Shown piece after piece: positions 592 to 12,128 of a DNA stretch of 12,128 bases. The first letter of the stretch is position 1, and every line of letters begins with the position of its first letter. The notes under the pieces are model-generated. The model worked only from the letters and a program-made list of their open reading frames with translations, was not told where the DNA came from and ran no database searches. A program made the position numbers and the translations under genes. The DNA is from a virus, in UHGV virus genome UHGV-0067634; one strand, given 5' to 3'.

Positions 592-611
592 TACTGTGTA
601 TAAACACAGCA
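592..611. promoter_or_regulatory. LexA-box-like (SOS box) palindrome TACTGTGTATAAACACAGCA
   Basis: CTGT-N8-ACAG with an AT-rich centre; 16 of 20 positions match the consensus TACTGTATATATATACAGTA as I recall it. It lies about 12 bp upstream (minus strand) of the GGGGAG RBS and ATG at 572..574, and about 87 bp upstream (plus strand) of the acyltransferase start. Confidence 0.4.
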
Positions 612-697
612 CCTACAGATATTGCTATCGATCAAGCCTTTCATGGGTGTTAAACTGCGCCCCTTAATACTTACTGCTATTTTTCTGAGTAAATATA

Positions 698-1846
698 ATG
701 ACTAACCAGTTTGCCATTACCATTGCTATATCCTGCTTCGTGATTGCGATGGTGATCTTCAGTTTGCCAGTCTTCAAATTCCTGGACGAAGAGGCTCAAC
801 CAAAGAGAACGAACAGTCTTGATGGGATGAGATTTATTCTTGCATCATTGGTAATATTTCATCACATGGACTGTTTTTATTCTTACTATACCACAGGTAA
901 ATGGGAGCCAGTTTCCTACTTTCTTTTCGCTGCCGGAAAGTATGGCGTTGCACTTTTTTTTATGACTACAGCTTACCTTTTTTGGGGCAAGGTAAGGATA
1001 AAAGATAGTGTTGATTGGGTTTCACTCTACAGAGGACGGTTTTTCAGGATTATCCCTTTAGCTGTATTCGCATCATTTGTCGCTATAATTTCATTGTTTA
1101 TTTTCACTAAGCCGTTCCCTCTGTATAACACCCCAATTTCAAATATATTTTCTTGGTTCGATGGTAGCTTATGGGATCACAAACCACCAGTAACAACGAT
1201 GCAGCGTCCAACTATAGCTTTGGCGGGTGTAACCTGGACTTTAAGATGGGAGTGGATGTTTTATTTTACTCTCCCTGCACTCTTTTTCTTTAGGAAACTT
1301 TCTTTTGAAATTTCAATAATTTTATTAGCATTTTCAATTTACCTCATGCCAAGCATAACCAAAGATGCATATCTTTGGTCATTTTTCTTCGCAGGAATGG
1401 TTTGCAGAGAGTTAAAGGAAAGAGTTTATATAACTGAGTCAAATGCAGAGTGGTTTTTATTAGCATCAATAATCCTCATCATAGTTGTCGACCCCACACT
1501 ATTTCGTGTTCCCGGAACGATATTCCTTGCCTTTATATTTTTCTCAATTTTGTCTGGAGGTAGCCTCTTTGGTTTACTCAAAACAAGAGCAGCTATTAGG
1601 CTTGGAACTATAAGTTATAGTCTATATATCACTCAAGGTTTAATTTTATTCCCTGCATACAACCTGTATATAAAAGAGTTTACGTTAAATCTTGATAGTT
1701 CATATTTTATATTCCTTTGCATGTCATACGCTGCCATTTGTTTTTTATCAGCAACAACCTATCATTTCATTGAGCTTCCTTTTATGAAAATAGGAGGTAG
1801 GAAAAGCACTAAGAAGCTAAACCAAGCCAATGTCTTAGATAAATGA
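698..1846 (+). CDS. Acyltransferase family 3 integral membrane protein, putative O-antigen O-acetyltransferase (serotype conversion)
   Basis: 382-aa ORF, hydrophobic throughout. Motif R-x3-LDGMRFILASLVIFHH resembles the acyltransferase-3 signature (R..LDGLRGIA....H) of Oac/OafA-type proteins. Sits in the slot between tailspike and phage end where P22 has gtrABC and Sf6 has oac. Visibly AT-rich versus the structural genes. The motif is preceded by a ~36-aa hydrophobic extension, so the true start is uncertain. Confidence 0.75.
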   Translation: MTNQFAITIAISCFVIAMVIFSLPVFKFLDEEAQPKRTNSLDGMRFILASLVIFHHMDCFYSYYTTGKWEPVSYFLFAAGKYGVALFFMTTAYLFWGKVRIKDSVDWVSLYRGRFFRIIPLAVFASFVAIISLFIFTKPFPLYNTPISNIFSWFDGSLWDHKPPVTTMQRPTIALAGVTWTLRWEWMFYFTLPALFFFRKLSFEISIILLAFSIYLMPSITKDAYLWSFFFAGMVCRELKERVYITESNAEWFLLASIILIIVVDPTLFRVPGTIFLAFIFFSILSGGSLFGLLKTRAAIRLGTISYSLYITQGLILFPAYNLYIKEFTLNLDSSYFIFLCMSYAAICFLSATTYHFIELPFMKIGGRKSTKKLNQANVLDK

Positions 1847-1887: not shown

Positions 1888-3861
1888 TTAGTTAAGGACC
1901 GTCCAGTCAGAACTATTTAACCCGTGCGATTTCCACCATTTGCTTGTCCCTGGAAGCCATACCTCTTGACCAATAAATCGAGGTGTCACGTTACCAACAG
2001 GAGTGCTCATTCCGGCACTTGTAACAACATATCCATATTTTGCTGGGCCTGTTCCATTATTAAGGATTGTATCCTTTGTTATGCCTGTTGCCCCATTGTA
2101 CCATTCCAAATCACTACCGCTAGCACCGCTAATAAAGTCAGGCATAAAGTGTGAAAATGAATTATTGGCATCCACTCTGGCACCATTGTAAGCCATATAA
2201 CCGCTAGCTTGAGTATTACTCCATCTCCCTCCTTTTACACTACCAGCAGATGAAGAGAAAAATCTTGCCGCATATCTTGCAAAACCGGCTATATTTATAT
2301 TATTCAATTCATAACCAGAAAGAGACGCAATTGACATACCATCATTATTAGGAATACCTGATGCTATTTGTGGGTTTGATGCATATCCTGTTAATGTGGC
2401 TCCGTTAATATATATCCCTGTGCTTGGCCCAGTCTCTGATGTGTATATTCCAACTCCAGAACAGTTAAAAACTTGAAGATCTGTGATTCTAACATTTCTG
2501 GCATAATGAAAGCTCAAGCCTCGCTCAGCTGGTGAATAGGTCTCGCGCATAGGATATCCGACATCACGCAAGCGAACTCCGTTAATGCTAATGTTGCTCG
2601 GATTCATACCTGGTGTTACTGACTCAAAACCTTCAAATGTAATGCCATTACCAACATTGATTCCCACTACATTACTGACGTGAATATCTGAGACATACCT
2701 TTTAAATCCGATAACTCCATGGGCACAATTACGACCAACAACGTTGGTGATAATGCAATTACGCGTGCCTCCAGGCTCCCCTGCAGAACAATAAATTCCT
2801 AAATCCCGACAATTCTCTACGAGAAGACCGTCAATGACGGAATCTGTAGCGCTTGCATACATCAGGCATGAATCAGGCGCATTAACAAGTTCAACATTTT
2901 TTAGTGTGCAACGTGCTCCACCAAAAGTAAGGATATCAGCTACAGCATAAAGCTTGTTGTTTTCTTGATTACCATCAATGCGTAAATCACGTATATGAAC
3001 ATCATTAGCCCCCATGTTGTGAACAAGGTAGTAGGCCTGTGTTTTATCAACACAAATATCATCCGCAAATTTAAGCCATCCCCCAGCACCGATAAGTATT
3101 GTTTTCTCCTTGATCTGTAATCCAGTAAATATCCATGGATCTCCATCTTTATTCTTTGGAGTAATCTTTATTGCACAGTAACCAGGAACAGATCCAGAAT
3201 AATCAAGTGCTGCCTGTAGCGTCTGCTGATCTGTCATGCTACCAAACATAAAAGAACGCACATCAATACAGTCATCAACCTGTAATTCCAATTGTAGGCC
3301 ATCAGAACGGTCAACAATGACAATACCATCTGCAGTAATACCCGTATTTGGAGTTACTGAGTACTTATTATAACTCCCGGCAGAGTTTTTAACCGCCACC
3401 AAGCGTCCTTCAACAGTTGTGTTTATTGTCAGATCAGTCTGGTTATCCAACTCCATGGCAATGCCGCCAATAAGAGCGGCCCCTTCAGGCTGTGATAGTT
3501 TGTTTTTAAATGTGTCTAATGCTTGATCTGGGTCATACTTAAGAACGTCAGGAAAGTAATGCTGTTGCACCATATATGAATCATATACAGCCATACTATA
3601 ATTCTGTGTAGTAAGAAACTTACATATCTGCCCGTTGTGAACAGGGTAGCCACCAGAATTAATTATTATTGGCTGAGAAACCGGAACAGGAGTGCCATTC
3701 TCACCTTCAATATATACCTGAATTTGGTTTGAAGGTGATGTTGGATCTGTATCAGGTAATCCTATAAACATTTTGCCATTGGCTACGGCTTTAAAAGAGC
3801 GAGCCATAGTGAAGAGTTGCGATGGCATGCTTACCACAACATTGGCTGTGATGTTTGTCAT
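1888..3861 (-). CDS. Tailspike protein: P22 gp9-like N-terminal head-binding domain fused to a different beta-helix receptor-binding domain
   Basis: 657-aa ORF. The first ~110 aa (MTNITANVVVS...RSFKAVANGK...VLKYDPDQ) align by eye with the P22 tailspike head-binding domain as I recall it. The remainder is Gly/Asn/Ser/Thr/Val-rich like a right-handed beta-helix but does not resemble the P22 endorhamnosidase domain. RBS AGGA 7 nt upstream of the ATG at 3859..3861. Confidence 0.9.
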   Translation of the reverse strand: MTNITANVVVSMPSQLFTMARSFKAVANGKMFIGLPDTDPTSPSNQIQVYIEGENGTPVPVSQPIIINSGGYPVHNGQICKFLTTQNYSMAVYDSYMVQQHYFPDVLKYDPDQALDTFKNKLSQPEGAALIGGIAMELDNQTDLTINTTVEGRLVAVKNSAGSYNKYSVTPNTGITADGIVIVDRSDGLQLELQVDDCIDVRSFMFGSMTDQQTLQAALDYSGSVPGYCAIKITPKNKDGDPWIFTGLQIKEKTILIGAGGWLKFADDICVDKTQAYYLVHNMGANDVHIRDLRIDGNQENNKLYAVADILTFGGARCTLKNVELVNAPDSCLMYASATDSVIDGLLVENCRDLGIYCSAGEPGGTRNCIITNVVGRNCAHGVIGFKRYVSDIHVSNVVGINVGNGITFEGFESVTPGMNPSNISINGVRLRDVGYPMRETYSPAERGLSFHYARNVRITDLQVFNCSGVGIYTSETGPSTGIYINGATLTGYASNPQIASGIPNNDGMSIASLSGYELNNINIAGFARYAARFFSSSAGSVKGGRWSNTQASGYMAYNGARVDANNSFSHFMPDFISGASGSDLEWYNGATGITKDTILNNGTGPAKYGYVVTSAGMSTPVGNVTPRFIGQEVWLPGTSKWWKSHGLNSSDWTVLN

Positions 3862-4256
3862 ATTAATTTCCTATCTGATTATTTATATATTAAATAAATT
3901 CGGATAGCAGCAGGCGAAAGATGAAAGTGTTAAAAAATAACCTTTCATTCATTTTATAGTTAACAATATAATTGTCTCTGCTAACATATAACACGCGAGC
4001 ACGCTGATCAACCGCCATATAACATGTGTACTTAACTAACTGTTTGCAAAAGAAAAAACAGACAACGAAAAGCATTAAGAAATAAAAAAACAAAATATAA
4101 AATTACCATTCAAATAAAATCATTGCTTTTCTTATTAATATTAACAGTGATACCAACAATGTTTATTTTCAAATCAAAACCTGTTTACAATATCTGTCAT
4201 TTAATTTGCTCCAGATACAAGGAATCGCCGCGGCATGGCTACGGTGAATTTTGGGC

Positions 4257-4300: not shown

Positions 4301-5203
4301 TCAGTAGTTATGTACTGAAGGAGGCAATTCTTTATTCTTAAGTCTCATCCATGCGGAAAGATTCGTTGGTCCGTCTGGCTCATTGATATCAACATCTCGT
4401 GTGTGATTGATTAAAACGTCTCTCGCCATTCCGATAACATACGAGAACTCATGACCATAGTCGTAGCATCTGCCGGAATAGTTCGATTGAATTTGTTTTA
4501 ATGCCGGATACAGTTCACGGAATAATGCCTGTGAACGGTTGGCATAATCCCATAACCATACAAGGCTGTTTGCTTCTTTTGCAGAAAGCTCGTTGGTTTT
4601 CTTCTCTTGTTTGCCAATGAACTCACCTTCAAGCACTACCCTGTGGATGTACTCTACGGCTTTCGGTATCTGAGATGCATCAAGCTCTTCAATACTTTCC
4701 ACATTGAAATGCTGATGAATCATTGCATAAGCTTCTGGGTACATTAGATGCTTTTTGCTGACCAGCATATTTACAGCATCACGAAGCGGAGTCCTGTCAT
4801 CAACAGATGTTTTCTTACGTGCATTTTCTGCCTTTCCCTTCGTCCAGCAGTCATGCAGCACAGTAAAGCATTCTTCCTGGTACTGAATCAGTTTATCACG
4901 GATGTCAGCACGAACTTTCTCAGGGTTGATGCTGAACAGCCATCCATTTAACTTCTTCAAAGGAAGGCAGAGTAGCTTACGAAGCTTACCATCAGCGGCA
5001 ACCATGTTCATATGAACACAGTTGAATTTGCTAATCTGCTTCATGAGTTTTGTTTGCTGCGTTGACCAGCTCATTCCAAGGTTTTCAACGATTGGCTTCA
5101 TCGCAACATATGCAACTCCGGCAGCCATGGCGGTGATAATTTGCTGACCGTTGAATGGTACGTAAGAGGTGTTCACTGCTTCTAAAATTGCTATACTATT
5201 CAT
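4301..5203 (-). CDS. ant: Antirepressor Ant (immI region)
   Basis: 300-aa ORF directly downstream of arc in the same orientation, matching P22 immI gene order. The longer track ORF (to 5269) starts at TTG; the ATG at 5201..5203 ([10 protein letters not shown]...) has a GGAG RBS and gives the expected size. Product assigned by synteny and length, not by remembered sequence. Confidence 0.8.
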
Positions 5204-5271
5204 GTTGGTTTTTCTCCACGGATTTACTGACAAACGAAGCCCTGACTGTTCCCGCAGTTGGGGCTTCAACT
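5204..5271 (+). ncRNA. sar: Possible sar antisense RNA locus (arc-ant intercistronic region); ends not determined
   Basis: In P22 a ~68-nt antisense RNA is made from the arc-ant intercistronic region and pairs with the ant RBS. Here that region is 68 bp and holds a 13-bp imperfect hairpin (5235..5266, two G-U pairs). Promoter and 3' end could not be fixed from sequence. Confidence 0.3.
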
Positions 5272-5433
5272 TTACGCGCCAATGCGCCCTTCCTTCTTAA
5301 AGCTTTCCATTACTCTCTGATAAATCTCAGAGTTAACAGACCGACCATTCTCTTCCGCCACCTTGCGTACCAAATCCAATACTTCTTTAGGCCACCGCAA
5401 ATTGAACTGCGGCATTTTGCTCATTCCTTTCAT
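5272..5433 (-). CDS. arc: Arc repressor (ribbon-helix-helix)
   Basis: 53-aa product [53 protein letters not shown] matches P22 Arc as I recall it, apart from one Lys where I remember Arg16. Start set at the ATG at 5431..5433; the track's upstream extension is not real. Confidence 0.95.
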
Positions 5434-5448
5434 GTTCACCTCATAATA

Positions 5449-5467
5449 TAGGTCCACGGTGGACCTA
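5449..5467. promoter_or_regulatory. Mnt operator (Omnt), perfect palindrome TAGGTCCACGGTGGACCTA
   Basis: 19-bp perfect palindrome containing the 17-bp P22 Mnt operator core AGGTCCACGGTGGACCT. It overlaps the predicted Pant start site. Confidence 0.85.
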
Positions 5468-5496
5468 TTGAGAATATAGTAGAGTGCTTCTATCAT
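5468..5496 (+). promoter_or_regulatory. Pmnt promoter
   Basis: On the plus strand: -35 TTGAGA (5468..5473), 17-bp spacer, -10 TATCAT (5491..5496). GGAG RBS 7 nt before the mnt ATG. Overlaps Pant back-to-back, as described for P22 immI. Confidence 0.6.
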
Positions 5497-5501
5497 GTCA
5501 A
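5473..5501 (-). promoter_or_regulatory. Pant promoter (arc-ant operon)
   Basis: On the minus strand: -35 TTGACA (5496..5501), 17-bp spacer, -10 TATATT (5473..5478). Predicted start falls inside Omnt. Confidence 0.7.
5476..5496. promoter_or_regulatory. Arc operator (Oarc), ATAGTAGAGTGCTTCTATCAT
   Basis: Exact match to the 21-bp P22 arc operator as I recall it, lying between the -35 and -10 elements of both divergent promoters. Confidence 0.9.
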
Positions 5502-5523
5502 TACACTAACTTGGAGTGATGGC

Positions 5524-5775
5524 ATGGCTAGAGATGATCCGCACTTTAACTTCCGTATGCCTATGGAAGTAAGGGAGAAATTAAAATTCAGGGCGGAGGC
5601 GAATGGGAGATCAATGAACTCCGAGTTGTTACAAATCGTCCAAGATGCTCTATCAAAACCATCGCCTGTGACTGGATATCGTGACGATGCAGAACGACTC
5701 GCTGATGAGCAGTCAGATCTTGTTAAGAAGATGGTGTTTGATACGCTGAAGGATTTGTACAAAAAAACCACCTGA
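5524..5775 (+). CDS. mnt: Mnt repressor (ribbon-helix-helix)
   Basis: 83-aa product MARDDPHFNFRMPMEVREKLKFRAEANGRSMNSELLQIVQDALSKPSPVTGYR...KKMVFDTLKDLYKKTT is near-identical to P22 Mnt as I recall it. Divergent from arc across the operator region. Confidence 0.95.
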   Translation: MARDDPHFNFRMPMEVREKLKFRAEANGRSMNSELLQIVQDALSKPSPVTGYRDDAERLADEQSDLVKKMVFDTLKDLYKKTT

Positions 5776-5874
5776 CGGTGAGTTAATTTTTGCATTTACC
5801 TGGGCCATATTGACTACTTATAAAATGAGATCAATATTTAATCGCCCAATAACGGGTGTATGTTGAGGTATATC

Positions 5875-6054
5875 ATGGCGAAAAAACCAGGTGAAAACAC
5901 AGGAAAAAACGGCGGAATATACCAAGAAGTTGGCCCACGCGGCGGTAAGAAAGACAATTTTGCCACCGTCAAGGACAACGAAAGGCTTCCACCAACAACA
6001 AAGCCAGGTCATGGCTGGGTATTGGATAAGCGAACTCCAGACAGCAAAAAGTAA
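5875..6054 (+). CDS. Small Lys/Gly-rich hypothetical protein (59 aa), in the position of P22 orf59a
   Basis: ATG at 5875 with a GAGG RBS about 8 nt upstream. Product MAKKPGENTGKNGGIYQEVGPRGGKKDNFATVKDNERLPPTTKPGHGWVLDKRTPDSKK. Same strand as mnt and followed by a terminator. Length and position match what I recall of P22 orf59a; homology not verified. Confidence 0.55.
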   Translation: MAKKPGENTGKNGGIYQEVGPRGGKKDNFATVKDNERLPPTTKPGHGWVLDKRTPDSKK

Positions 6055-6059
6055 TAATC

Positions 6060-6082
6060 AAGCCGGGTCACTCCGGCTTTTT
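6060..6082 (+). terminator. Rho-independent terminator after the 59-aa ORF
   Basis: Stem AAGCCGG, loop GTCACT, stem CCGGCTT, then a T-run ending at 6082. The hairpin overlaps the last four codons (KKPE) of the convergent minus-strand ORF 6068..6433. Confidence 0.55.
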
Positions 6083-6433
6083 GATATGTCGCTCGCAGAA
6101 CTCAACAAGCCTGCTCATTAAGTAGCAGTAAGTCTCGTTGGCTCTTCCTGGTTCAACATCAACACCTACCCTTGAGCAGATATCGAATGCCATGTGAGCG
6201 CACTCATGGGCAATAGTAGATAGTTTGCCATTGAACACGCCTATCACATGCAAAACACCATTCTCGCTACTCATTGTATGAGACGCTCCGTTGGCGTCCG
6301 AGTCATGCACGTCAACGCCAAGTTTTTGATGCAGGCGTTGCCATTCTGGAAAGTCTCTACAAAACACAATTGTACCGCTCTCAAAGAGCGGTACGAGCAT
6401 CTTTGGTACGTTTCCAATGTTAACTTTTTTCAT
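6068..6433 (-). CDS. Hypothetical protein with HExxH zinc-metallopeptidase motif (possibly ImmA/IrrE-like)
   Basis: 121-aa ORF; ATG at 6431..6433 with AGGA 4 nt upstream. Motif IAHECAHMAF, followed 14 residues later by E-PGR-AN-ETYCYLM, which resembles the HExxH...E..AN.FA..LL pattern of M78-type peptidases. A perfect TATAAT sits upstream on the minus strand (plus coordinates 6463..6468). Confidence 0.55.
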   Translation of the reverse strand: MKKVNIGNVPKMLVPLFESGTIVFCRDFPEWQRLHQKLGVDVHDSDANGASHTMSSENGVLHVIGVFNGKLSTIAHECAHMAFDICSRVGVDVEPGRANETYCYLMSRLVEFCERHIKKPE

Positions 6434-6467
6434 GGTATCCTGCGCAAAACTAAGGAGAGTTAATTAT

Positions 6468-6953
6468 ATGAAAAAATCACTGTTAATTATCCCGCTTCTG
6501 CTGGCTGGGTGCGCAAAAGTAAGCGACTATCAGGCAAGTTGCGAGCAACGCTATCCAAAGCTTAGCGATATGGCTAATTGCCTTGATGCCAGCTTGAAGA
6601 ACGACTCTCGCATGGCATCAGCACCAACACCTAAGCTGTATGTCCTTGCTGCGAAGATGCTCGGGCAAGGTGTCGATGAAGGCAAGATAAGTGACACACA
6701 GGCAAGACTTGAACTTCAGAATCTTTATGTTCAATTACAAAGCCAAGAACAAGCACAACAAATAGCACAAAGCCAAGCATTCCAGCAGGCTTTATTGAAT
6801 TATCAGGCTGTAAACACAATGCAAGCGATCGAGCAAAAAGCGCGCCAGCCTGTTATAACTCAACCTTACCCAACACGCGTTGACACATATACAAACTGCA
6901 ATTCAGGATTTGGAAACACGGTAACATGCAACAGTAGCAGTAATATCAGATAG
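6468..6953 (+). CDS. Putative lipoprotein (161 aa) with Gln-rich predicted coiled region; candidate superinfection-exclusion or moron protein
   Basis: ATG at 6468 with a strong AAGGAGAG RBS. N-terminus MKKSLLIIPLLLAGC is a lipoprotein signal peptide with lipobox LAGC, and Ala at +2 suggests outer-membrane sorting. Central Q/A/L-rich segment; two Cys pairs flank it. Occupies the gene16-proximal slot where P22 carries sieA; homology to SieA not established. Confidence 0.7.
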   Translation: MKKSLLIIPLLLAGCAKVSDYQASCEQRYPKLSDMANCLDASLKNDSRMASAPTPKLYVLAAKMLGQGVDEGKISDTQARLELQNLYVQLQSQEQAQQIAQSQAFQQALLNYQAVNTMQAIEQKARQPVITQPYPTRVDTYTNCNSGFGNTVTCNSSSNIR

Positions 6954-6966
6954 TTATATCTTATTT

Positions 6967-8814
6967 TTATTGCTGTTCTGCTGTAATTTGGCTTGAAAGT
7001 ATAGGGCGTATCGCATTTGCAGCATTATTTAGCGCTCTTTCATAGGCTGGTGTTCCTGCTTTGGTGTTTGCCAAACGTAAGAGAGCATTCCTTGCTGCTT
7101 TTGACTCATACAAGCGCATCATTGCACCGAAACCAGCCTCAAGCCCCATTGATACGCCAAGAGTCGTAGTTGCGCCAATCGTCCTTATCCTGTTGGCTTG
7201 CGATTGCCCCGTCTGAGTTACTACATTTGCGGTGTCTGATCTTGCTGTTTGCTGTAGAACTTCATGAAGAGCATCAAGTTCTTTCATGTGCTTTCCAGAA
7301 AAAATAGTGTTGTAAATTTCACCGCCTGACTGAGATTTCAGCTTATTAACTTCCGTGATGAACTTGGCTGGAGAGTCACCGGCCTTTTCCGCTATTTTGC
7401 TGACGTAAGCTGCACGCATAGCATCTTTCCCTTTATCATCCAATGCGCTCCAGATTCGTTTCACGTCAGATGGTTTTCTGCTTAATACAACAGTATTTAT
7501 AAGTTCAGGACTGGCTTCACTGCTTGCCTTGTTGAGCTTGTTAGCAATGTTTTTATTAAGCACCTTATTATAAACGTTTGCATAATCGGAATTTGCTTTA
7601 AGGTATTTTGCTGCGTCTGATGCACCGAGGTTTTTTGCAACTGCGTTACGAAGGTCTTTTGACATTGCATTCTCTACCATATTGGTAGCTGCTTTTGCCT
7701 GGTTGGGGAAGACCATAGCATCCCCCTGAACATTAGATCTAAATGCTGTTCTGTGCTGACGTAGGAGATCAAACGTAACATCCAAATCAGTTGCAGGGTT
7801 TGCTAATTCTTCACGTAGGTTACGCAAGGATGTAAGCAGGCTTTGATTGGCAGACGTCCCAAGCCGTTCCTGTCTTGCGATCGCTGTATTCAGAGCATTC
7901 ATGGTATTTGTGGTATCAACTGCGGCATTACCCATTTTATTGGTGACGTCATTGATAACAGCGCCAGCGGCATCCTTCCGTCCCCTTAACGTGGTGGTCA
8001 GAGATTTCACCACATCATCAGGGTTGTACTCACCAAAACGGTCAAAATAATTGCTTACCAGCTTACTACGCGTTGCATATTGCTCCGCTCGCTTTGAGCC
8101 TGTCCCGAGCAAAGCCCCCTCAGCATCCTGAGTAAGTCCGCGAGTGAAAGCATTTTTCGGCGGGATAACATCAGATGTCATTGGTGTCACGCCCATCGAT
8201 TCTGAGGTGGCAATTTTTTTCGCTACTTCTGGCGCGATATCGCCTTTTATAGCAGTTATTCCACGCCCTATTCCCTTTGCTGCTGCGGAAAGAACACCCT
8301 GAGCGGCAAGGTTAACTCCGGCGTTTATGGCTGCATTTTGCGCGAAATCGCCTTTCTGGTTCGCGGCTTCTGCCAGTGATCCAATAGCCATGCTTCCTGC
8401 CGTTCCAACTCCTGGAACTAAATACCCGCCAATTGTTTCTCCAGCTTGAGCGTAGGGGTCTGTCGGTCGATCGACTGGACGATAGACATCATCCAAAACC
8501 TTGGGGCCACCAAGCCCCTGACTGATTGCATTAATCAGACTTGCGCCGCCCTGTAATACGTCAAATGGTATGTTTACCAGACCACGACCAGCCTGTTCTG
8601 CAATTTGCCCTGCACTTTGACCACCAGTGAGCCAATCGCCAGCTTGTTGCATCAATGATGGTTCTTCCCGTGTTGGTGCATTATTGGCCTGATTAACTAT
8701 TTGTTGCTGAACAGCCTGACCAGCAAAATACTCATCAATGGCGGTGCCAATATCTTCGGTGCCCGTACCATCAGGAAAGGTAAATGTCTTACCGTTTGCA
8801 GTTACTTTCATCAT
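6967..8814 (-). CDS. Ejection (E) protein, P22 gp16-like
   Basis: 615-aa ORF, last gene of the 26-14-7-20-16 block. Start ATG overlaps the gp20 stop (ATGA at 8811..8814). Assigned by position, size and order in a P22-like context. Confidence 0.8.
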
Positions 8815-10217
8815 TCCACCGTAAATTGAATGCCTGATTTTGAGGTATATGATCCAACCTGATTCCGTGGTTCTCCTGAAGGTGTCGAATCTTGTGCTGG
8901 CGCTGCGTCAGTATTCATTGACATATACCGCTTAACGGCACTCCCCAATGATTCACCTTTTTTAACATCCAACCCCAATATCTGACCGCCATTACGCGAT
9001 TGTCCAGGGTTGCCATTCGCGCTCATCCACTCGGCTTTAAACTCATTAAACTGCGCGTTTCGTCGCTCAAGGTTTGCCATTGCATCAAGCCATCTTGCGA
9101 CCGTCTCAGGGTTATCCATGTCAGTTGGCGCACCCTGTCGAACGATCTCAACGTCTTTATCCGTTGCTGGGCCGGGAGGTAGGAATTTAAGAACCTGACT
9201 GTTAACAAGGGCATTTTGGCGAATGCGCAAATCACGCAATGTTGTATCGCTTCCGGTAAGTTTTGCGAACATGTTCTGTGCGTTACCGAACAAACCTGTC
9301 GTTGGTTTTTCTGCTCTGAACTGTTGAGCAAGCGCACTCATAGAATTGGCTGAGTTTGATGATGCTGTAGCATTGTTTACAGCCGTCTCGATGCCTTTTT
9401 CCATGTTTACTGACAGCTTAGGTGCTTCGCTAATCAACTGCTGAGCCTTTTCCTGCGCTTGCTGCATCTTAAACCCGAACTCTTGCTGATCCAGAGCCAA
9501 GCGTTGTGCTGCGATATTGTGCCCAGTCATTGCTGACTGATAGGAAAGGTTTTGCCCTCTCGCCTGAAGTGCTTCTCCAGCCTGATTGCTACGGATTGTC
9601 TCTGCCAGCCTGCCTCGGTCAATTTCACGACCAGCCATCTTGTCCTGAACATTGAAGTAGTCAATCGGACCGAGAGCAGCCATCCCAAGGTGATCAACAA
9701 ACTCACCAAATCCTGAAGGATTCTGCTGATACATCTGAGCAACGCTGTTAGGGTCAACACCGACGCGAGTCAGTTCCTTGGCGTTGTTTTGCAGCCATGA
9801 TTGCATTGCTTCTGGAGACGATGACGCAAGGCGTGCGCCAGCCGCTAAGGTGCCGATAGAATTACGCTGCTCTTCATCAATGAATCCCATGCCTTTACGA
9901 ACAGATTCAATCTGGTCTGGATATTGAGTAGCCAACTGACGCAAAGCACCGCGATCACCAGACGCATAAGCATTAGCGTATGCCTGCTGAAATTCTTTCT
10001 GCCGCTGAGCCTGCTTTTCCTGCTGAAAAACACCCGCAATACCTGAAAGACCTTGCAAAGCAGTCAGCCCAACATTTTTAGCGCCTGAACGCTCAATATC
10101 ATTGTTCTGCCTGATAAGCTGAAGCGTATTGCCGATGTCATTTACGTTAGGAGCGTTTGAGTTGACGCCACCGATACCAGCCAACAATCCGCCATTTGAT
10201 CCTTGCCAAGTAGCCAT
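8811..10217 (-). CDS. Ejection (E) protein, P22 gp20-like
   Basis: 468-aa ORF. AGGGG RBS 6 nt before the ATG at 10215..10217. Position and size fit gp20 between gp7 and gp16. Confidence 0.8.
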
Positions 10218-10226
10218 GATTACCCC

Positions 10227-10919
10227 TTAAAACAACGAGCCAAGCAATCCGATACCAGCGCCAATGCCAGCCCCCCACGGTGTTGATGTTCCAAGAAGGC
10301 TGGCAAGACCTGCACCGGCAATCGCACCAGACGTGCCGCCGCTAATTGCTGTCTGAAGACTTGATGGTTTATTGGCATTAGCAGCGGCAAGTGCTGCGCT
10401 TTGCTGTGCAATGCTGCTCATGTTGTTGGCGTATGTCTGCCCGGCGTTCGCCTGACCTTGCAGCGCACCAAGGCCAATGTTTGCCAGATTGTTGTAGTTG
10501 CTCATCTGGTTTGATAACCAAGACTGACCGAGAGTCGGCGCGATCGTAGCCAGTTGATTGCTTGTGGCTGTCGAACCAAGTCCTCCCGTAGCCTCCGCAG
10601 CAGCAAGACTCTGGTAACGAGCCTGACCTGCAAGGTCTTTATACTGCTGAGAGTTGTAATACTGATTAAGTGCCTGACCCTGTCCTTCTAAACTGGAAAG
10701 GTTCTGAAGCTGGTTAACATACTGCTCCGCAAGCGGCGTGAACGGAGCAAGGTTTTTCATGATTGTCTGCCACTGCTGATTTTGCAGGTCTGCGGCATAC
10801 TTCTGAGCTTCTGCTGCATACTTTGCGCTTTTATCAGAGCTGCCACCTTTCCCGCCTTTTTCAGGGCAATAAGGTTCCTCGCCGCGCAGTTTTCTGCCCA
10901 GCTTAAATGCATATAACAT
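10227..10919 (-). CDS. Ejection (E) protein, P22 gp7-like
   Basis: 230-aa ORF with AGGAG RBS. N-terminus MLYAFKLGRKLRGEE... and a Gly/Ala-rich hydrophobic C-terminal tail (…GAGIGAGIGLLGSLF) fit a membrane-inserting ejection protein. Confidence 0.8.
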   Translation of the reverse strand: MLYAFKLGRKLRGEEPYCPEKGGKGGSSDKSAKYAAEAQKYAADLQNQQWQTIMKNLAPFTPLAEQYVNQLQNLSSLEGQGQALNQYYNSQQYKDLAGQARYQSLAAAEATGGLGSTATSNQLATIAPTLGQSWLSNQMSNYNNLANIGLGALQGQANAGQTYANNMSSIAQQSAALAAANANKPSSLQTAISGGTSGAIAGAGLASLLGTSTPWGAGIGAGIGLLGSLF

Positions 10920-10921
10920 GG

Positions 10922-11377
10922 CTATCTCCTGTGATTCAGGAAGTCGATTAGTTCTTCGCGTGTGGCGCTGTAAAACGTCACGTCATCCACGCCTTTGAAG
11001 TATTTCTTGATGGTTCCTACACGCTTAAGGCCAATCATTGCGCAGTACATCTGCCCGTGGCGGAATTTGCGTGCAGCGAACGATGTGACGCACTGAACGG
11101 TGGTGTTAGTCAGAATGTATCGCCAGAACGCCAGCCCGATTTCCTTGCTGAATCCACGAACCTCTGGCAGGTACATGGCGTGGCAATCGAATGTCAGCGG
11201 CTGAATCTCCTGATAGTAAACAATGCCGCCGAACTGCCCGTGCACGTTCACCTCAAAGTAACGGCAATCAGGTTTGTAGTCGTATCCATCACCGTTGTTG
11301 CTCCCGGCAATAATGTCAGGGTAATTTCCTACTGCCTCTATCAGGTCGATGTTTCGCGTTGGTTTGAATGTAATCAT
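10922..11377 (-). CDS. P22 gp14-like virion assembly protein (assigned by position)
   Basis: 151-aa ORF between the gp26 and gp7 genes. Its start overlaps the gp26 stop (ATGA at 11375..11379). Function inferred from synteny only. Confidence 0.6.
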   Translation of the reverse strand: MITFKPTRNIDLIEAVGNYPDIIAGSNNGDGYDYKPDCRYFEVNVHGQFGGIVYYQEIQPLTFDCHAMYLPEVRGFSKEIGLAFWRYILTNTTVQCVTSFAARKFRHGQMYCAMIGLKRVGTIKKYFKGVDDVTFYSATREELIDFLNHRR

Positions 11378-12078
11378 CAGTCAATCAGCCCATGTAATCT
11401 AAGTGCTGTTTCAAGCGCCAGAATACGCTGCCGCGCCTGCTGCAAACCTGTAGCGAGAGCTGCGACTTCGGATTGTGTGTACGTAGTGCCGACCGTGTAT
11501 GACTGGTTAGCGTTGAATGAGCCAAGAAGTGGCGTACCTGTGGCTGCAGTCCATCCGGTATTTCTTGCTCCAACAACCTGAATTCCATCAACTGAATATG
11601 ATGTTTTTACATTCAGTGGTGACGCAAGAGACTGCGATTCGGTTACGGTTTTCGATACGTAATCACTCTTAATGTCAGATACATCGCTTTCTACGCCCTC
11701 CAGTCTTTTGTCAACAGTGACAAGATGCGCCTGAATATCGATAACCTCATCCAGCAAGTAATCAACATCGCTACGCAGTACGACTATCTTCCCTTCGGCG
11801 GTTGTTAACCTGACCTCAAGGAGATTTATCGCTTTTGTGTTTGCGGTGATTCTTGCATCGTGGTCATCGAGAATCACATCCTGCTCATCGTTCCTGACTT
11901 GTGCGTCATAAGCTCCCTGTCCGGCCTCGTTGGCCTTGTTAGCCACGTTACCAACATCAGTACCCTGTGCGATAACGTACAGCAGATATGACTGCGAGAA
12001 GATATTGCGTGGAAGGACTGATGTGTCGAGTCGTGTAGCCTGAATGATTACCGGCTCATTGAGATTCGAATCAGCCAT
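11377..12078 (-). CDS. Tail needle protein, P22 gp26-like
   Basis: 233-aa [21 protein letters not shown]...[14 protein letters not shown]-terminal region and length fit P22 gp26 as I recall it. AGGA RBS 7 nt upstream. Confidence 0.85.
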
Positions 12079-12128
12079 TACTCAATCCTTATCTGGCAGC
12101 CAGACAGAGTGACAGGTGACTTAGTGAT
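12078..12128 (-). CDS. 3' end of upstream tail gene (gp10-like), partial at window edge
   Basis: Only one minus-strand frame is open to the window edge (...[16 protein letters not shown]). Its TAA stop overlaps the gp26 ATG (TAATG), consistent with translational coupling. Confidence 0.4.

Follow-up and report, generated by a model that had tools for sequence, protein, structure and literature searches.

In a working phage P22, the distal late genes from gene 10 to gene 16 are transcribed as a single unit, their stop and start codons lying close together or overlapping, and their products are built into the virion. During infection, the tail needle is released, and gp7, gp20, and gp16 exit the capsid and provide a DNA conduit across the periplasm and the inner membrane. 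Cryptic lambdoid prophages such as DLP12, Rac, Qin, and e14 carry int/xis and scattered intact phage genes, form no particles, and may donate genes by recombination.

Here, we have analyzed a stretch of 12,128 nucleotides (the window), which is an exact substring of the E. coli contig ERZ1310279 NODE_147 in ENA (L008) and is 1 SNP apart, in 12,128 bases, from NCBI assemblies GCA_033644825.1 and GCA_023890495.1. Positions 6967-12128 are the distal late operon of a P22-like (Lederbergvirus-type) phage. This cassette is intact in sequence but very probably stranded in a cryptic prophage that carries two deletions and is unable to make particles, rather than being part of a working phage. Compared to DLP12, Rac, Qin, and e14, the element is very young, and the block that it has kept is a tail and ejection module of the P22 type.

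The needle and ejection-protein cassette

The cassette lies on the minus strand and comprises the end of gene 10 followed by full-length homologues of genes 26, 14, 7, 20, and 16 in the P22 order (ORF map and tblastn):

12078-12128, minus strand: 3' end of gene 10 (tail hub, 'packaged DNA stabilization protein'), with the last 16 codons (12081-12128) and the stop TAA (12078-12080)
11377-12078, minus strand: gene 26 homologue, trimeric tail needle (plug), 233 aa, knob-less P22/HK620 type; phrog_1219 over 1-233/233
10922-11377, minus strand: gene 14 homologue (DUF2824), 151 aa; Pfam PF11039, E=3e-52; phrog_651
10227-10919, minus strand: gene 7 homologue, ejection protein, 230 aa; Pfam PF25688 (P22_gp7) over 1-230/230, E=2e-134; phrog_598
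8811-10217, minus strand: gene 20 homologue, ejection protein (periplasmic tube), 468 aa; Pfam PF16928 (Inj_translocase) at residues 10-225; phrog_917 at residues 1-468
6967-8814, minus strand: gene 16 homologue, inner-membrane-associated ejection protein, 614 or 615 aa depending on which ATG (8811 or 8814, respectively) is taken as the start; phrog_770

The conserved order 10(partial)-26-14-7-20-16, claimed in the original prediction from the sequence alone, is borne out by collinear minus-strand tblastn matches with the proteins of P22 (NC_002371, 6788-13313). Frameshifts or truncations, which had been named as contrary evidence, were looked for by blastp and tblastn alignment to P22, and none was found: frameshifts and internal stops number zero, each gene occupies a single frame, and the products are 0-5 aa off those of P22 and equal to, or no more than 2 aa off, prophage copies with 97-99% identity.

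At the gene 10 end, 15/16 C-terminal residues equal those of P22 gp10, and the full gene (472 aa, 8583-10001 in locus L004) is matched by Pfam PF11134 over 1-469/469. The needle shares 95% identity with HK620 gp26 and 60% with P22 gp26 (233/233 aa), and lacks the knob of the Sf6 needle. Since its sequence matches PDB needle chains (5bu5 over its full length, E=1e-138, as well as the P22 gp26 structures 2poh and 3c9i), it is predicted to have the gp26 fold, with an N-terminal hub-binding domain and a trimeric coiled coil; the same PDB sequence search returned nothing for gp14, gp7, gp20, and gp16. Identity of gp14 is 91% to P22 (151/151 aa) and 96-97% to both HK620 (97%) and Sf6, whereas gp7 is 83% identical to P22 gp7 (230/229 aa) and 98.7% to Sf6 gp11, with the N-terminal 20-residue propeptide region kept in the N-terminal alignment. 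The gp16 homologue is of the P22 type (74% identity over its full length, 614/609 aa), while HK620 is similar only over residues 24-200 and Sf6 is 32% identical; PF26808 has been assigned to a protein identical to it.

The largest departure from P22 concerns gp20 (468/471 aa, approximately 41% identical overall), of which BLAST aligns only the N-terminal half (residues 1-239, 48%) together with the last residues. The N-terminal half is kept, and in the C-terminal half a mosaic module other than that of P22 is present. Sf6 gp12 is 83% identical over residues 1-270, and two E. coli prophage copies (n=2) are 98-99% identical over all 468 aa, which shows that the protein is intact over its full length. 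These copies, in loci L002 and L006, also rule out the uniqueness of this gp20, which forms a cluster of one at 90% identity in a protein collection.

NCBIfam profiles gave no match for any cassette protein. The exact proteins are already present in public databases under the expected names, and the cassette is a textbook P22-type module whose mosaic of alleles (HK620-type needle, Sf6-type gp7, P22-type gp16) is typical. Such a mosaic pattern has already been described for this phage group (PMC10883804). Pfam, PHROG, P22 alignments, and junction spacings all agree with the earlier view that the cassette is ordinary for P22-like phages.

Overlapping start and stop codons had also been predicted at three junctions, and all three are present, with some refinement of two of them. 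At 10/26 (TAATG), the gene 10 stop shares 1 nt with the gp26 ATG, compared to a 3-nt gap (+3) in P22. At 26/14 (TGATGA), the first TGA ends gp26 and overlaps the gp14 ATG by 1 nt; the predicted ATGA is literally there, but its TGA is the second in-frame stop. Genes 14 and 7 are separated by 2 nt, and genes 7 and 20 by 9 nt. At 20/16 (ATGATGA), the predicted 4-nt ATGA overlap exists only if the first ATG of gp16 is used, and the second ATG (8811), which is homologous to the P22 start and was chosen by RefSeq annotation and other gene calls, gives a 1-nt TGATG overlap. The last four junctions (26/14, 14/7, 7/20, and 20/16) are spaced as in P22 (-1, +2, +10, and -1 there), and the layout is therefore inherited rather than a chance pattern.

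The accessory region and SieA-type exclusion

Downstream of gene 16, the window continues with the following features:

6465-6953, plus strand: lipoprotein gene, 162 aa, lipobox LLAGC, phrog_6067
4301-6433, mixed strands: immI-like region (hkcC, orf59a, mnt, arc, sar, ant)
6068-6433, minus strand: hkcC homologue, 99% identical to the HK620 copy
5860-6054, plus strand: orf59a, 98% to P22 (tblastn)
5524-5775, plus strand: mnt, 98% to P22 (tblastn)
5275-5433, minus strand: arc, 98% to P22 (tblastn)
5204-5271, plus strand: sar antisense RNA, Rfam sar, 92 bits
4304-5203, minus strand: ant, 86% to P22 (tblastn)
1888-3861, minus strand: tailspike gene, 657 aa, P22-type head-binding domain, Pfam PF09008
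698-1846, plus strand: acyltransferase gene, 382 aa, divergent from the tailspike gene and adjoining attR, Pfam PF01757

P22 likewise has a convergent accessory gene followed by mnt-arc-sar-ant-tailspike, but that gene is sieA, whereas the lipoprotein gene and hkcC are found here. The lipoprotein gene sits in the slot and orientation of P22 sieA. It occurs in five phage records, and its product equals, over 161 annotated aa, the copy encoded by an E. coli prophage that is far more complete; it has no match in Pfam, PADLOC, or NCBIfam, and PADLOC gave no match for the accessory genes.

The ejection proteins had been proposed as likely targets of SieA-type exclusion, which would add interest to the neighboring accessory genes. 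The first part of this proposal stands, considering that published SieA-escape mutations fall within the C-terminal regions of both gp16 and gp20 (PMC10883804); the SieA-escape position G532 of P22 gp16 is kept here as G535. However, the interval from gene 16 to the tailspike gene has no recognizable sieA: a tblastn search with P22 SieA (type A only) had no match anywhere in the window, and no ORF of at least 100 aa other than the lipoprotein gene and hkcC was found between gene 16 and mnt.

The surrounding element and its deletions

The element spans approximately 16.5 kb of E. coli DNA from attL to attR, in the order attL-int-xis-'cII-O-P'-'4-10-26-14-7-20-16-lipoprotein-hkcC-orf59a-mnt-arc-ant-tailspike-acyltransferase-attR. 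Its insertion site in this E. coli lineage is the ibs/sib repeat flanked by mdtA and yegL; the repeat is split at both ends, and a lambda-like attP arm sequence is present at attR. The lambda-type integrase (357 aa) and Xis (72 aa) are intact, and so is O, which has ori iterons. Nearly all surviving genes are intact ORFs; only cII, P, and gene 4 are reduced to stumps, and an ORF close to attR is possibly split.

A 50-mer taken from window positions 611-660 had no exact match among species-representative genomes, and the locus was traced by exact matches to its proteins. This locus was found in 24/24 contigs read for the exact gp26, and the same holds for the exact gp16 and tailspike; approximately 22 of the 24 continue through int-xis-O into the host mdtABC genes. 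The P and gene 4 stumps upstream of gene 10 are shared by the window-matching contig and 23 other E. coli assemblies. All carriers examined are draft assemblies belonging to a single near-clonal lineage, and the complete E. coli genome set, in which any single genome covers at most 57% of the window and 39% of the whole locus, offers no closed reference. A larger relative at the lambda att site, used solely to compare the layout, is present in strain D7 and is itself partly decayed.

Two internal deletions have removed approximately 24 kb in total. The first runs from just past xis, which is adjoined by a tI-like terminator, to about codon 23 of cII, and has taken the early-left genes, N, the repressor, and cro; the remaining cII fragment matches Pfam Phage_CII over 25-91/91, its first 22-24 or so codons being absent. 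The second runs from codon 33 of a lambda-like P to about codon 133 of gene 4; lost with it are the remaining replication genes and nin, the late activator with the late promoter, the lysis genes, the genes for terminase, portal, scaffold, and coat, and the greater part of gene 4. At this junction, the P' reading frame is MKNIAAQMVNFDREQMRRIANNMPEQYDEKPQV, then out-of-frame residues, with 33 codons of the lambda-like P left. The gene 4 stump (YPNRMPVGSG...GSE, then a stop) consists of the last 33 codons and aligns with the C-terminus of P22 gp4 (Pfam P22_Tail-4, 128-153/159). The blastn map of the merged locus agrees with these limits: 5789-7244 corresponds to lambda att-int-xis, 7242-7496 to P22 c1 from nt 67, and 7464-8483, at 98.7% identity, to lambda O together with 99 nt from the start of P, after which P22 homology starts again at gene 10. 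Only 194 nt, made up of the P and gene 4 stumps, separate O from gene 10, and the nearest deletion lies 100 nt upstream of gene 10, approximately 1.5 kb past the window edge.

Consistent with this map, terminase (genes 3 and 2), portal (1), scaffold (8), and coat (5) are absent between attL and attR in L004 and L007. The gene 4 product (head-tail adaptor) is incomplete, and a complete gene 4 is needed before gp10 can bind. Neither a late activator (gene 23 or Q) nor lysis genes appear in the locus gene lists, and blastn gave no match to P22 37186-39425; the immunity-C genes for repressor (c2) and cro were not found between attL and attR either. The original prediction that the intact, coupled cassette belongs to a probably functional element rather than a decayed remnant therefore fails just outside the window. 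Because head, packaging, lysis, and control genes are deleted, the element would be unable to form particles.

The same cassette has quite different surroundings in its relatives. P22 has a whole genome around it. The prophage at argW of E. coli 2013C-4991 (L002) has the same order, the same lipoprotein gene and hkcC, and gp20 and gp16 that are 97-99% identical, but its annotation also lists terminase large subunit, portal, scaffold, coat, gp4, lysis, and Q-type antitermination genes; it uses IntS at tRNA-Arg, whereas the element here has lambda-type int/xis/O at ibs/sib. The prophage of O111:H- 11128 (L006), again with 97-99% identical gp20 and gp16 and the same gene order, decays differently: it is riddled with IS elements, IS1203 having inserted, and a NUMOD4 gene separates gene 10 from gene 26.

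The cassette has no cognate promoter: the late activator and late promoter are absent, and a simple consensus scan of the coding strand from xis to gene 10 found no sigma-70-like site. It is therefore most likely silent, although weak or read-through transcription may occur. The deletions are recent, as the isolates differ by 1 SNP in 12,128 bases, and it is this very recent origin, rather than any function of the element, that accounts for the intact ORFs of the cassette. The dN/dS values of 0.03-0.27 against close relatives give no sign of relaxed constraint yet; they reflect purifying selection during the common past with functional phages and say nothing on the time since the deletions.

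Alternative readings and biological meaning

One alternative is that the remnant is a selected helper-dependent element, either a satellite-like supplier of needle, ejection proteins, and tailspike to helper capsids or a defense that poisons heterologous P22-like progeny by way of mismatched ejection proteins. What survives would suit such a role, with int, xis, O and its ori iterons, and the block from gene 10 to the tailspike gene and immI all intact, and the potentially host-toxic kil and lysis genes gone; in addition, single swaps of mismatched gp16 or gp20 have been reported to give non-infectious P22 particles (PMC10883804). However, the deletions end inside genes and out of frame (cII ~23, P 33, gene 4 ~133) rather than at module borders, the truncated P would preclude autonomous replication, and neither a pac site/small terminase gene (gene 3) nor a late activator, late promoter, or upstream promoter-like site is present. 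The element thus differs from phage satellites (PICI-like), which would have their own packaging signal/small terminase, or else capsid-redirecting genes, and autonomous replication, and it is confined to one near-clonal lineage. This reading is very unlikely, and equally small is the chance that selection has kept the remnant as a mobilizable allele donor to incoming P22-like phages or as a source of mismatched ejection proteins that spoil heterologous progeny. A second apparent short int-to-tailspike element, in ExPEC XM, turned out to be two tandem prophages and provides no evidence of recurrent selected remnants.

An extremely unlikely explanation is that the O-P'/'4-10 junction is a misassembly generated by lambdoid repeats shared with other prophages, for which it may be argued that two of the contigs, L008/L005 and L009, stop at the junction or close to it and that O, which shares 98.7% identity with lambda O, probably has further copies in the genome. 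Against it, approximately 22 independent assemblies, with contigs of up to 837 kb, join mdtABC, ibs, int, xis, O, and gene 10, and the rest of gene 4 is found upstream of the stump in no contig. Even in L008, the 154 nt upstream of gene 10 equal L004 8429-8582, which span the deletion junction, and include 55 nt of the P side past it, so that junction-spanning sequence was assembled there.

The view of the cassette as part of a P22-like prophage that is complete and inducible has virtually no chance of being right, despite six intact reading frames with P22-like coupling in the window and intact immI region, tailspike, int, and xis, considering the short interval of stumps between O and gene 10, the lack of terminase, portal, scaffold, coat, lysis genes, gene 23, P_late, c2, and cro from attL to attR, and the same structure in every contig with these exact proteins. 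A second, complete P22-like prophage may exist elsewhere in the same genome, which would not make the remnant functional.

The preferred reading remains that of a recently deleted cryptic prophage, and mitomycin or plaque work on the strain is predicted to yield nothing from this element. Intact, translationally coupled late genes are thus not proof of a live prophage, and in so young a lineage ORF integrity tells nothing about function. As an ordinary cryptic prophage, the element has small relevance beyond annotation. At most, incoming P22-like phages would find in the cassette a reservoir of alleles of the needle, the ejection proteins, and the tailspike to recombine with; if the remnant were indeed kept as such an allele donor, recombination would alter phage host range or sensitivity to SieA-type exclusion.

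Cassette genes and their junctions

Six consecutive minus-strand genes occupy 6967-12128 of the window (ORF map and minus-strand sequence), and the family assignments of their products are unambiguous.

Cassette genes
12081-12128 (-), 3′ end of gene 10, last 16 codons; stop TAA at 12078-12080
11377-12078 (-), gene 26, 233 aa
10922-11377 (-), gene 14, 151 aa
10227-10919 (-), gene 7, 230 aa
8811-10217 (-), gene 20, 468 aa
6967-8811 (-), gene 16, 614 aa; 615 aa with the ATG at 8814

Pfam matches were obtained for gp14 (DUF2824), gp7 (P22_gp7) and gp20 (Inj_translocase), the PHROGs labels of the cassette proteins were tail needle, head morphogenesis, DNA ejection, 'released upon infection' and DNA transfer protein, and the needle aligned along its entire length with needle proteins of solved structure (5bu5, E=1e-138; 2poh; 3c9i). 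The P22 proteins aligned with the window end to end, in a single frame and with near-identical lengths (blastp, tblastn), at identities of 60% (gp26), 91% (gp14), 83% (gp7) and 74% (gp16). For gp20, BLAST aligned the N-terminal half at 48%, plus the last residues, and all 468 aa are 98-99% identical to two E. coli prophage copies. The original prediction had described an intact cassette; frameshifts and truncations were looked for in its genes (P22 alignments; prophage copies for gp20) and none was found, so that this observation is correct, and ordinary.

Gene junctions in the window and in P22
10/26: TAATG, 1-nt overlap; P22, 3-nt gap
26/14: TGATGA, 1-nt overlap; P22, 1-nt overlap
14/7: 2-nt gap, preceded by an AGGAGA Shine-Dalgarno sequence; P22, 2-nt gap
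7/20: 9-nt gap; P22, 10-nt gap
20/16: ATGATGA, 4-nt or 1-nt overlap; P22, 1-nt overlap

The layout of these junctions suggests translational coupling. The ATGA previously proposed for 26/14 is present, but its TGA is the second in-frame stop; gp26 ends at the first TGA, which has one base in common with the ATG. At 20/16, the first ATG gives the 4-nt overlap and the second the 1-nt overlap; since P22 has ATAATG here, the second is the homologous gene 16 start, as also taken by the RefSeq annotation and contig gene calls. The P22 spacings are the same at four of the five junctions (7/20: 9 versus 10 nt), and the close packing is therefore inherited architecture.

Mosaic relationships and accessory genes

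The needle, of the knob-less type, has 95% identity to HK620 gp26, gp14 shares 96-97% identity with its HK620 and Sf6 counterparts, gp7 is 98.7% identical to that of Sf6, and the N-terminal 270 aa of gp20 show 83% identity to Sf6, whereas gp16 is of the P22 type (74%), unlike that of HK620 or Sf6. Intragenic and intergenic mosaicism is already known for the P22-like group (PMC10883804), and the mixed alleles are mosaicism of this kind. No phage record among those searched covers 80% of the cassette region; gp20 and gp16 copies in E. coli prophages are 97-99% identical. In the P22-like prophage of E. coli O111:H- 11128 (L006), a NUMOD4-domain, homing-endonuclease-like gene lies between genes 10 and 26 (L006 17090-17623), and three IS1203 copies lie in or beside the head-gene region, one of them splitting the scaffold gene; in this prophage, decay around the cassette has followed a separate, independent course.

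The earlier remark that ejection proteins are likely SieA targets is backed by published work, in which P22 SieA-escape mutants carry changes in C-terminal gp16 (G532W, P546S) and C-terminal gp20 (codons 338-350) (PMC10883804). The window gp16 keeps the G532 equivalent as G535 and has T549 in place of P546, and the C-terminal half of gp20 is too divergent from P22 for placing positions 338-350. No recognisable sieA was found in the element (P22 SieA gave no tblastn match in the window); the slot that holds sieA in P22 contains instead a lipoprotein gene, in the sieA orientation, and an hkcC homologue, neither with a PADLOC match.

Accessory features of the window
6465-6953 (+), lipoprotein gene, 162 aa, MKKSLLIIPLLLAGC lipobox; phrog_6067 (function unknown)
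6068-6433 (-), hkcC homologue, 121 aa, 99% identical to HK620 hkcC; phrog_1365 (function unknown)
5204-5271 (+), sar antisense RNA between arc and ant (Rfam RF00262, 92 bits)
1888-3861 (-), tailspike; P22-type head-binding domain, unrelated receptor-binding part
698-1846 (+), Acyl_transf_3 gene, 382 aa, adjoining the tailspike
594-609, perfect LexA-box-like palindrome CTGTGTATAAACACAG, upstream of short minus-strand frames

The lipoprotein gene has no Pfam or NCBIfam match either and is found in no more than five phage records (Gally, vB_EcoP-720R6, VSe13, MS2 LVA and Proteus phage Brookers); it is a candidate for an uncharacterised surface or exclusion function expressed from the prophage. 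The hkcC homologue has an HExxH-like motif (HECAH), and its start is overlapped by the longest lipoprotein ORF call (from 6417). The immI switch seems to be whole in spite of the immC deletion; a divergent Pant/Pmnt promoter pair lies at 5468-5501. The acyltransferase is presumably an O-antigen acetylase, and its pairing with this tailspike was found at the DNA level in no complete E. coli genome of the collection; strain D7 has a 657-aa tailspike that falls into one 90% cluster with that of the window. Short, apparently split minus-strand frames lie in the region of about 50-610, the last of which (50-418/487) matches the UmuD-like phrog_3469, and for 90-700 the phage collection gave no match at the DNA level. 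Located beside attR, the region could represent either a moron under SOS control or a pseudogene.

Two deletions upstream of the cassette

By exact-sequence look-up, the window tailspike, needle and gp16 were found in draft assemblies of E. coli, with 24 contigs read per protein, and NCBI likewise names E. coli as the host. ENA contig ERZ1310279 NODE_147 (L008) contains the whole reverse complement of the window as an exact substring, and one base differs from two NCBI assemblies (position 4079). Every contig read has one layout, mdtCBA-ibs-int-xis-O-10-26-14-7-20-16-lipoprotein-hkcC-orf59a-mnt-arc-ant-tailspike-acyltransferase-ibs-host genes (int 357 aa, xis 72 aa, O 299 aa); the host genes we take to be yegL, yegK, yegI, yegD, alkA and yegE, from Pfam domains and the gene order of the K-12 map. 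In the element, attL and attR lie about 16.5 kb apart and the att arms are lambda-like; its insertion splits an ibs/sib repeat. This toxin-antisense repeat, between mdtA and yegL, is the insertion site, which lies just beyond the window (5300-5860 in the E. coli source locus L004; 14060-14150 in locus L003); each flank has a predicted Ibs toxin ORF of 18 codons, and the arms are similar to lambda attP with a different core.

In the 5 kb of L004 examined on the upstream side of the window, blastn matched 7464-8483 at 98.7% identity to lambda O together with the initial 99 nt of lambda P. The O stop overlaps the ATG opening MKNIAAQMVNFDREQMRRIANNMPEQYDEKPQV, followed by out-of-frame residues and a stop, and from 8482 another frame, YPNRMPVGSGNQLAKWNGWNYFHRKEPCDNGSE and a stop, aligns to the P22 gp4 C-terminus (Pfam P22_Tail-4 positions 128-153 of 159); gene 10 is complete, with 472 aa and its start at 8583. 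The lambda-like att-int-xis sequence (77% identity) ends 113 nt beyond the xis start and abuts a cII/c1 gene without its first ~22 codons (Pfam Phage_CII positions 25-91 of 91). About 24 kb has thus been lost through two deletions whose endpoints fall inside genes. The first removed the early-left operon, N, repressor and cro, and the second the remainder of P, nin, the late activator, the late promoter, the lysis genes, terminase, portal, scaffold and coat, along with three quarters of gene 4. Recurrent misassembly at the P/gene 4 junction is very unlikely, because L008 spans it, ending 55 nt into the P side, and the 154 nt that precede gene 10 there are identical to L004 8429-8582, and about 22 other assemblies run through it unbroken into the host flank.

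Status and probable role of the element

The original prediction that the element is probably functional is wrong, as the two deletions removed head, packaging, lysis and control genes. Given its gene content, the element cannot package DNA, build heads, attach gp10 or lyse the cell; in the established P22 assembly order, gp10 attachment requires gp4 on the portal. The cassette is probably also transcriptionally silent, because its promoter and antiterminator are lost, a consensus scan of the coding strand from xis to gene 10 found no promoter-like site, and a tI-like terminator adjoins xis. The reading frames are intact because the element is young (one SNP in 12,128 bases among isolates), and low dN/dS versus close relatives (0.03-0.27) reflects a past spent inside working phages; ORF intactness here is no information on function.

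It is unlikely that the element has been selected for a helper-dependent or interference role, and nothing specific favours this reading: the deletions end inside genes and out of frame, the packaging signal and promoter are absent, P is truncated, and only one near-clonal lineage carries the element. A complete prophage around the cassette is excluded by the assemblies examined. Strain ExPEC XM, considered as a parallel short element, was rejected as tandem prophages.

A P22-type cassette carried by a cryptic lambdoid/P22-hybrid prophage, as found here, is a known kind of arrangement. Speculatively, the divergent acyltransferase, immI genes and lipoprotein could still be expressed and might favour retention of that prophage end. 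By analogy with defective prophages in general, the most plausible residual role would be that of a recombination reservoir for related phages.
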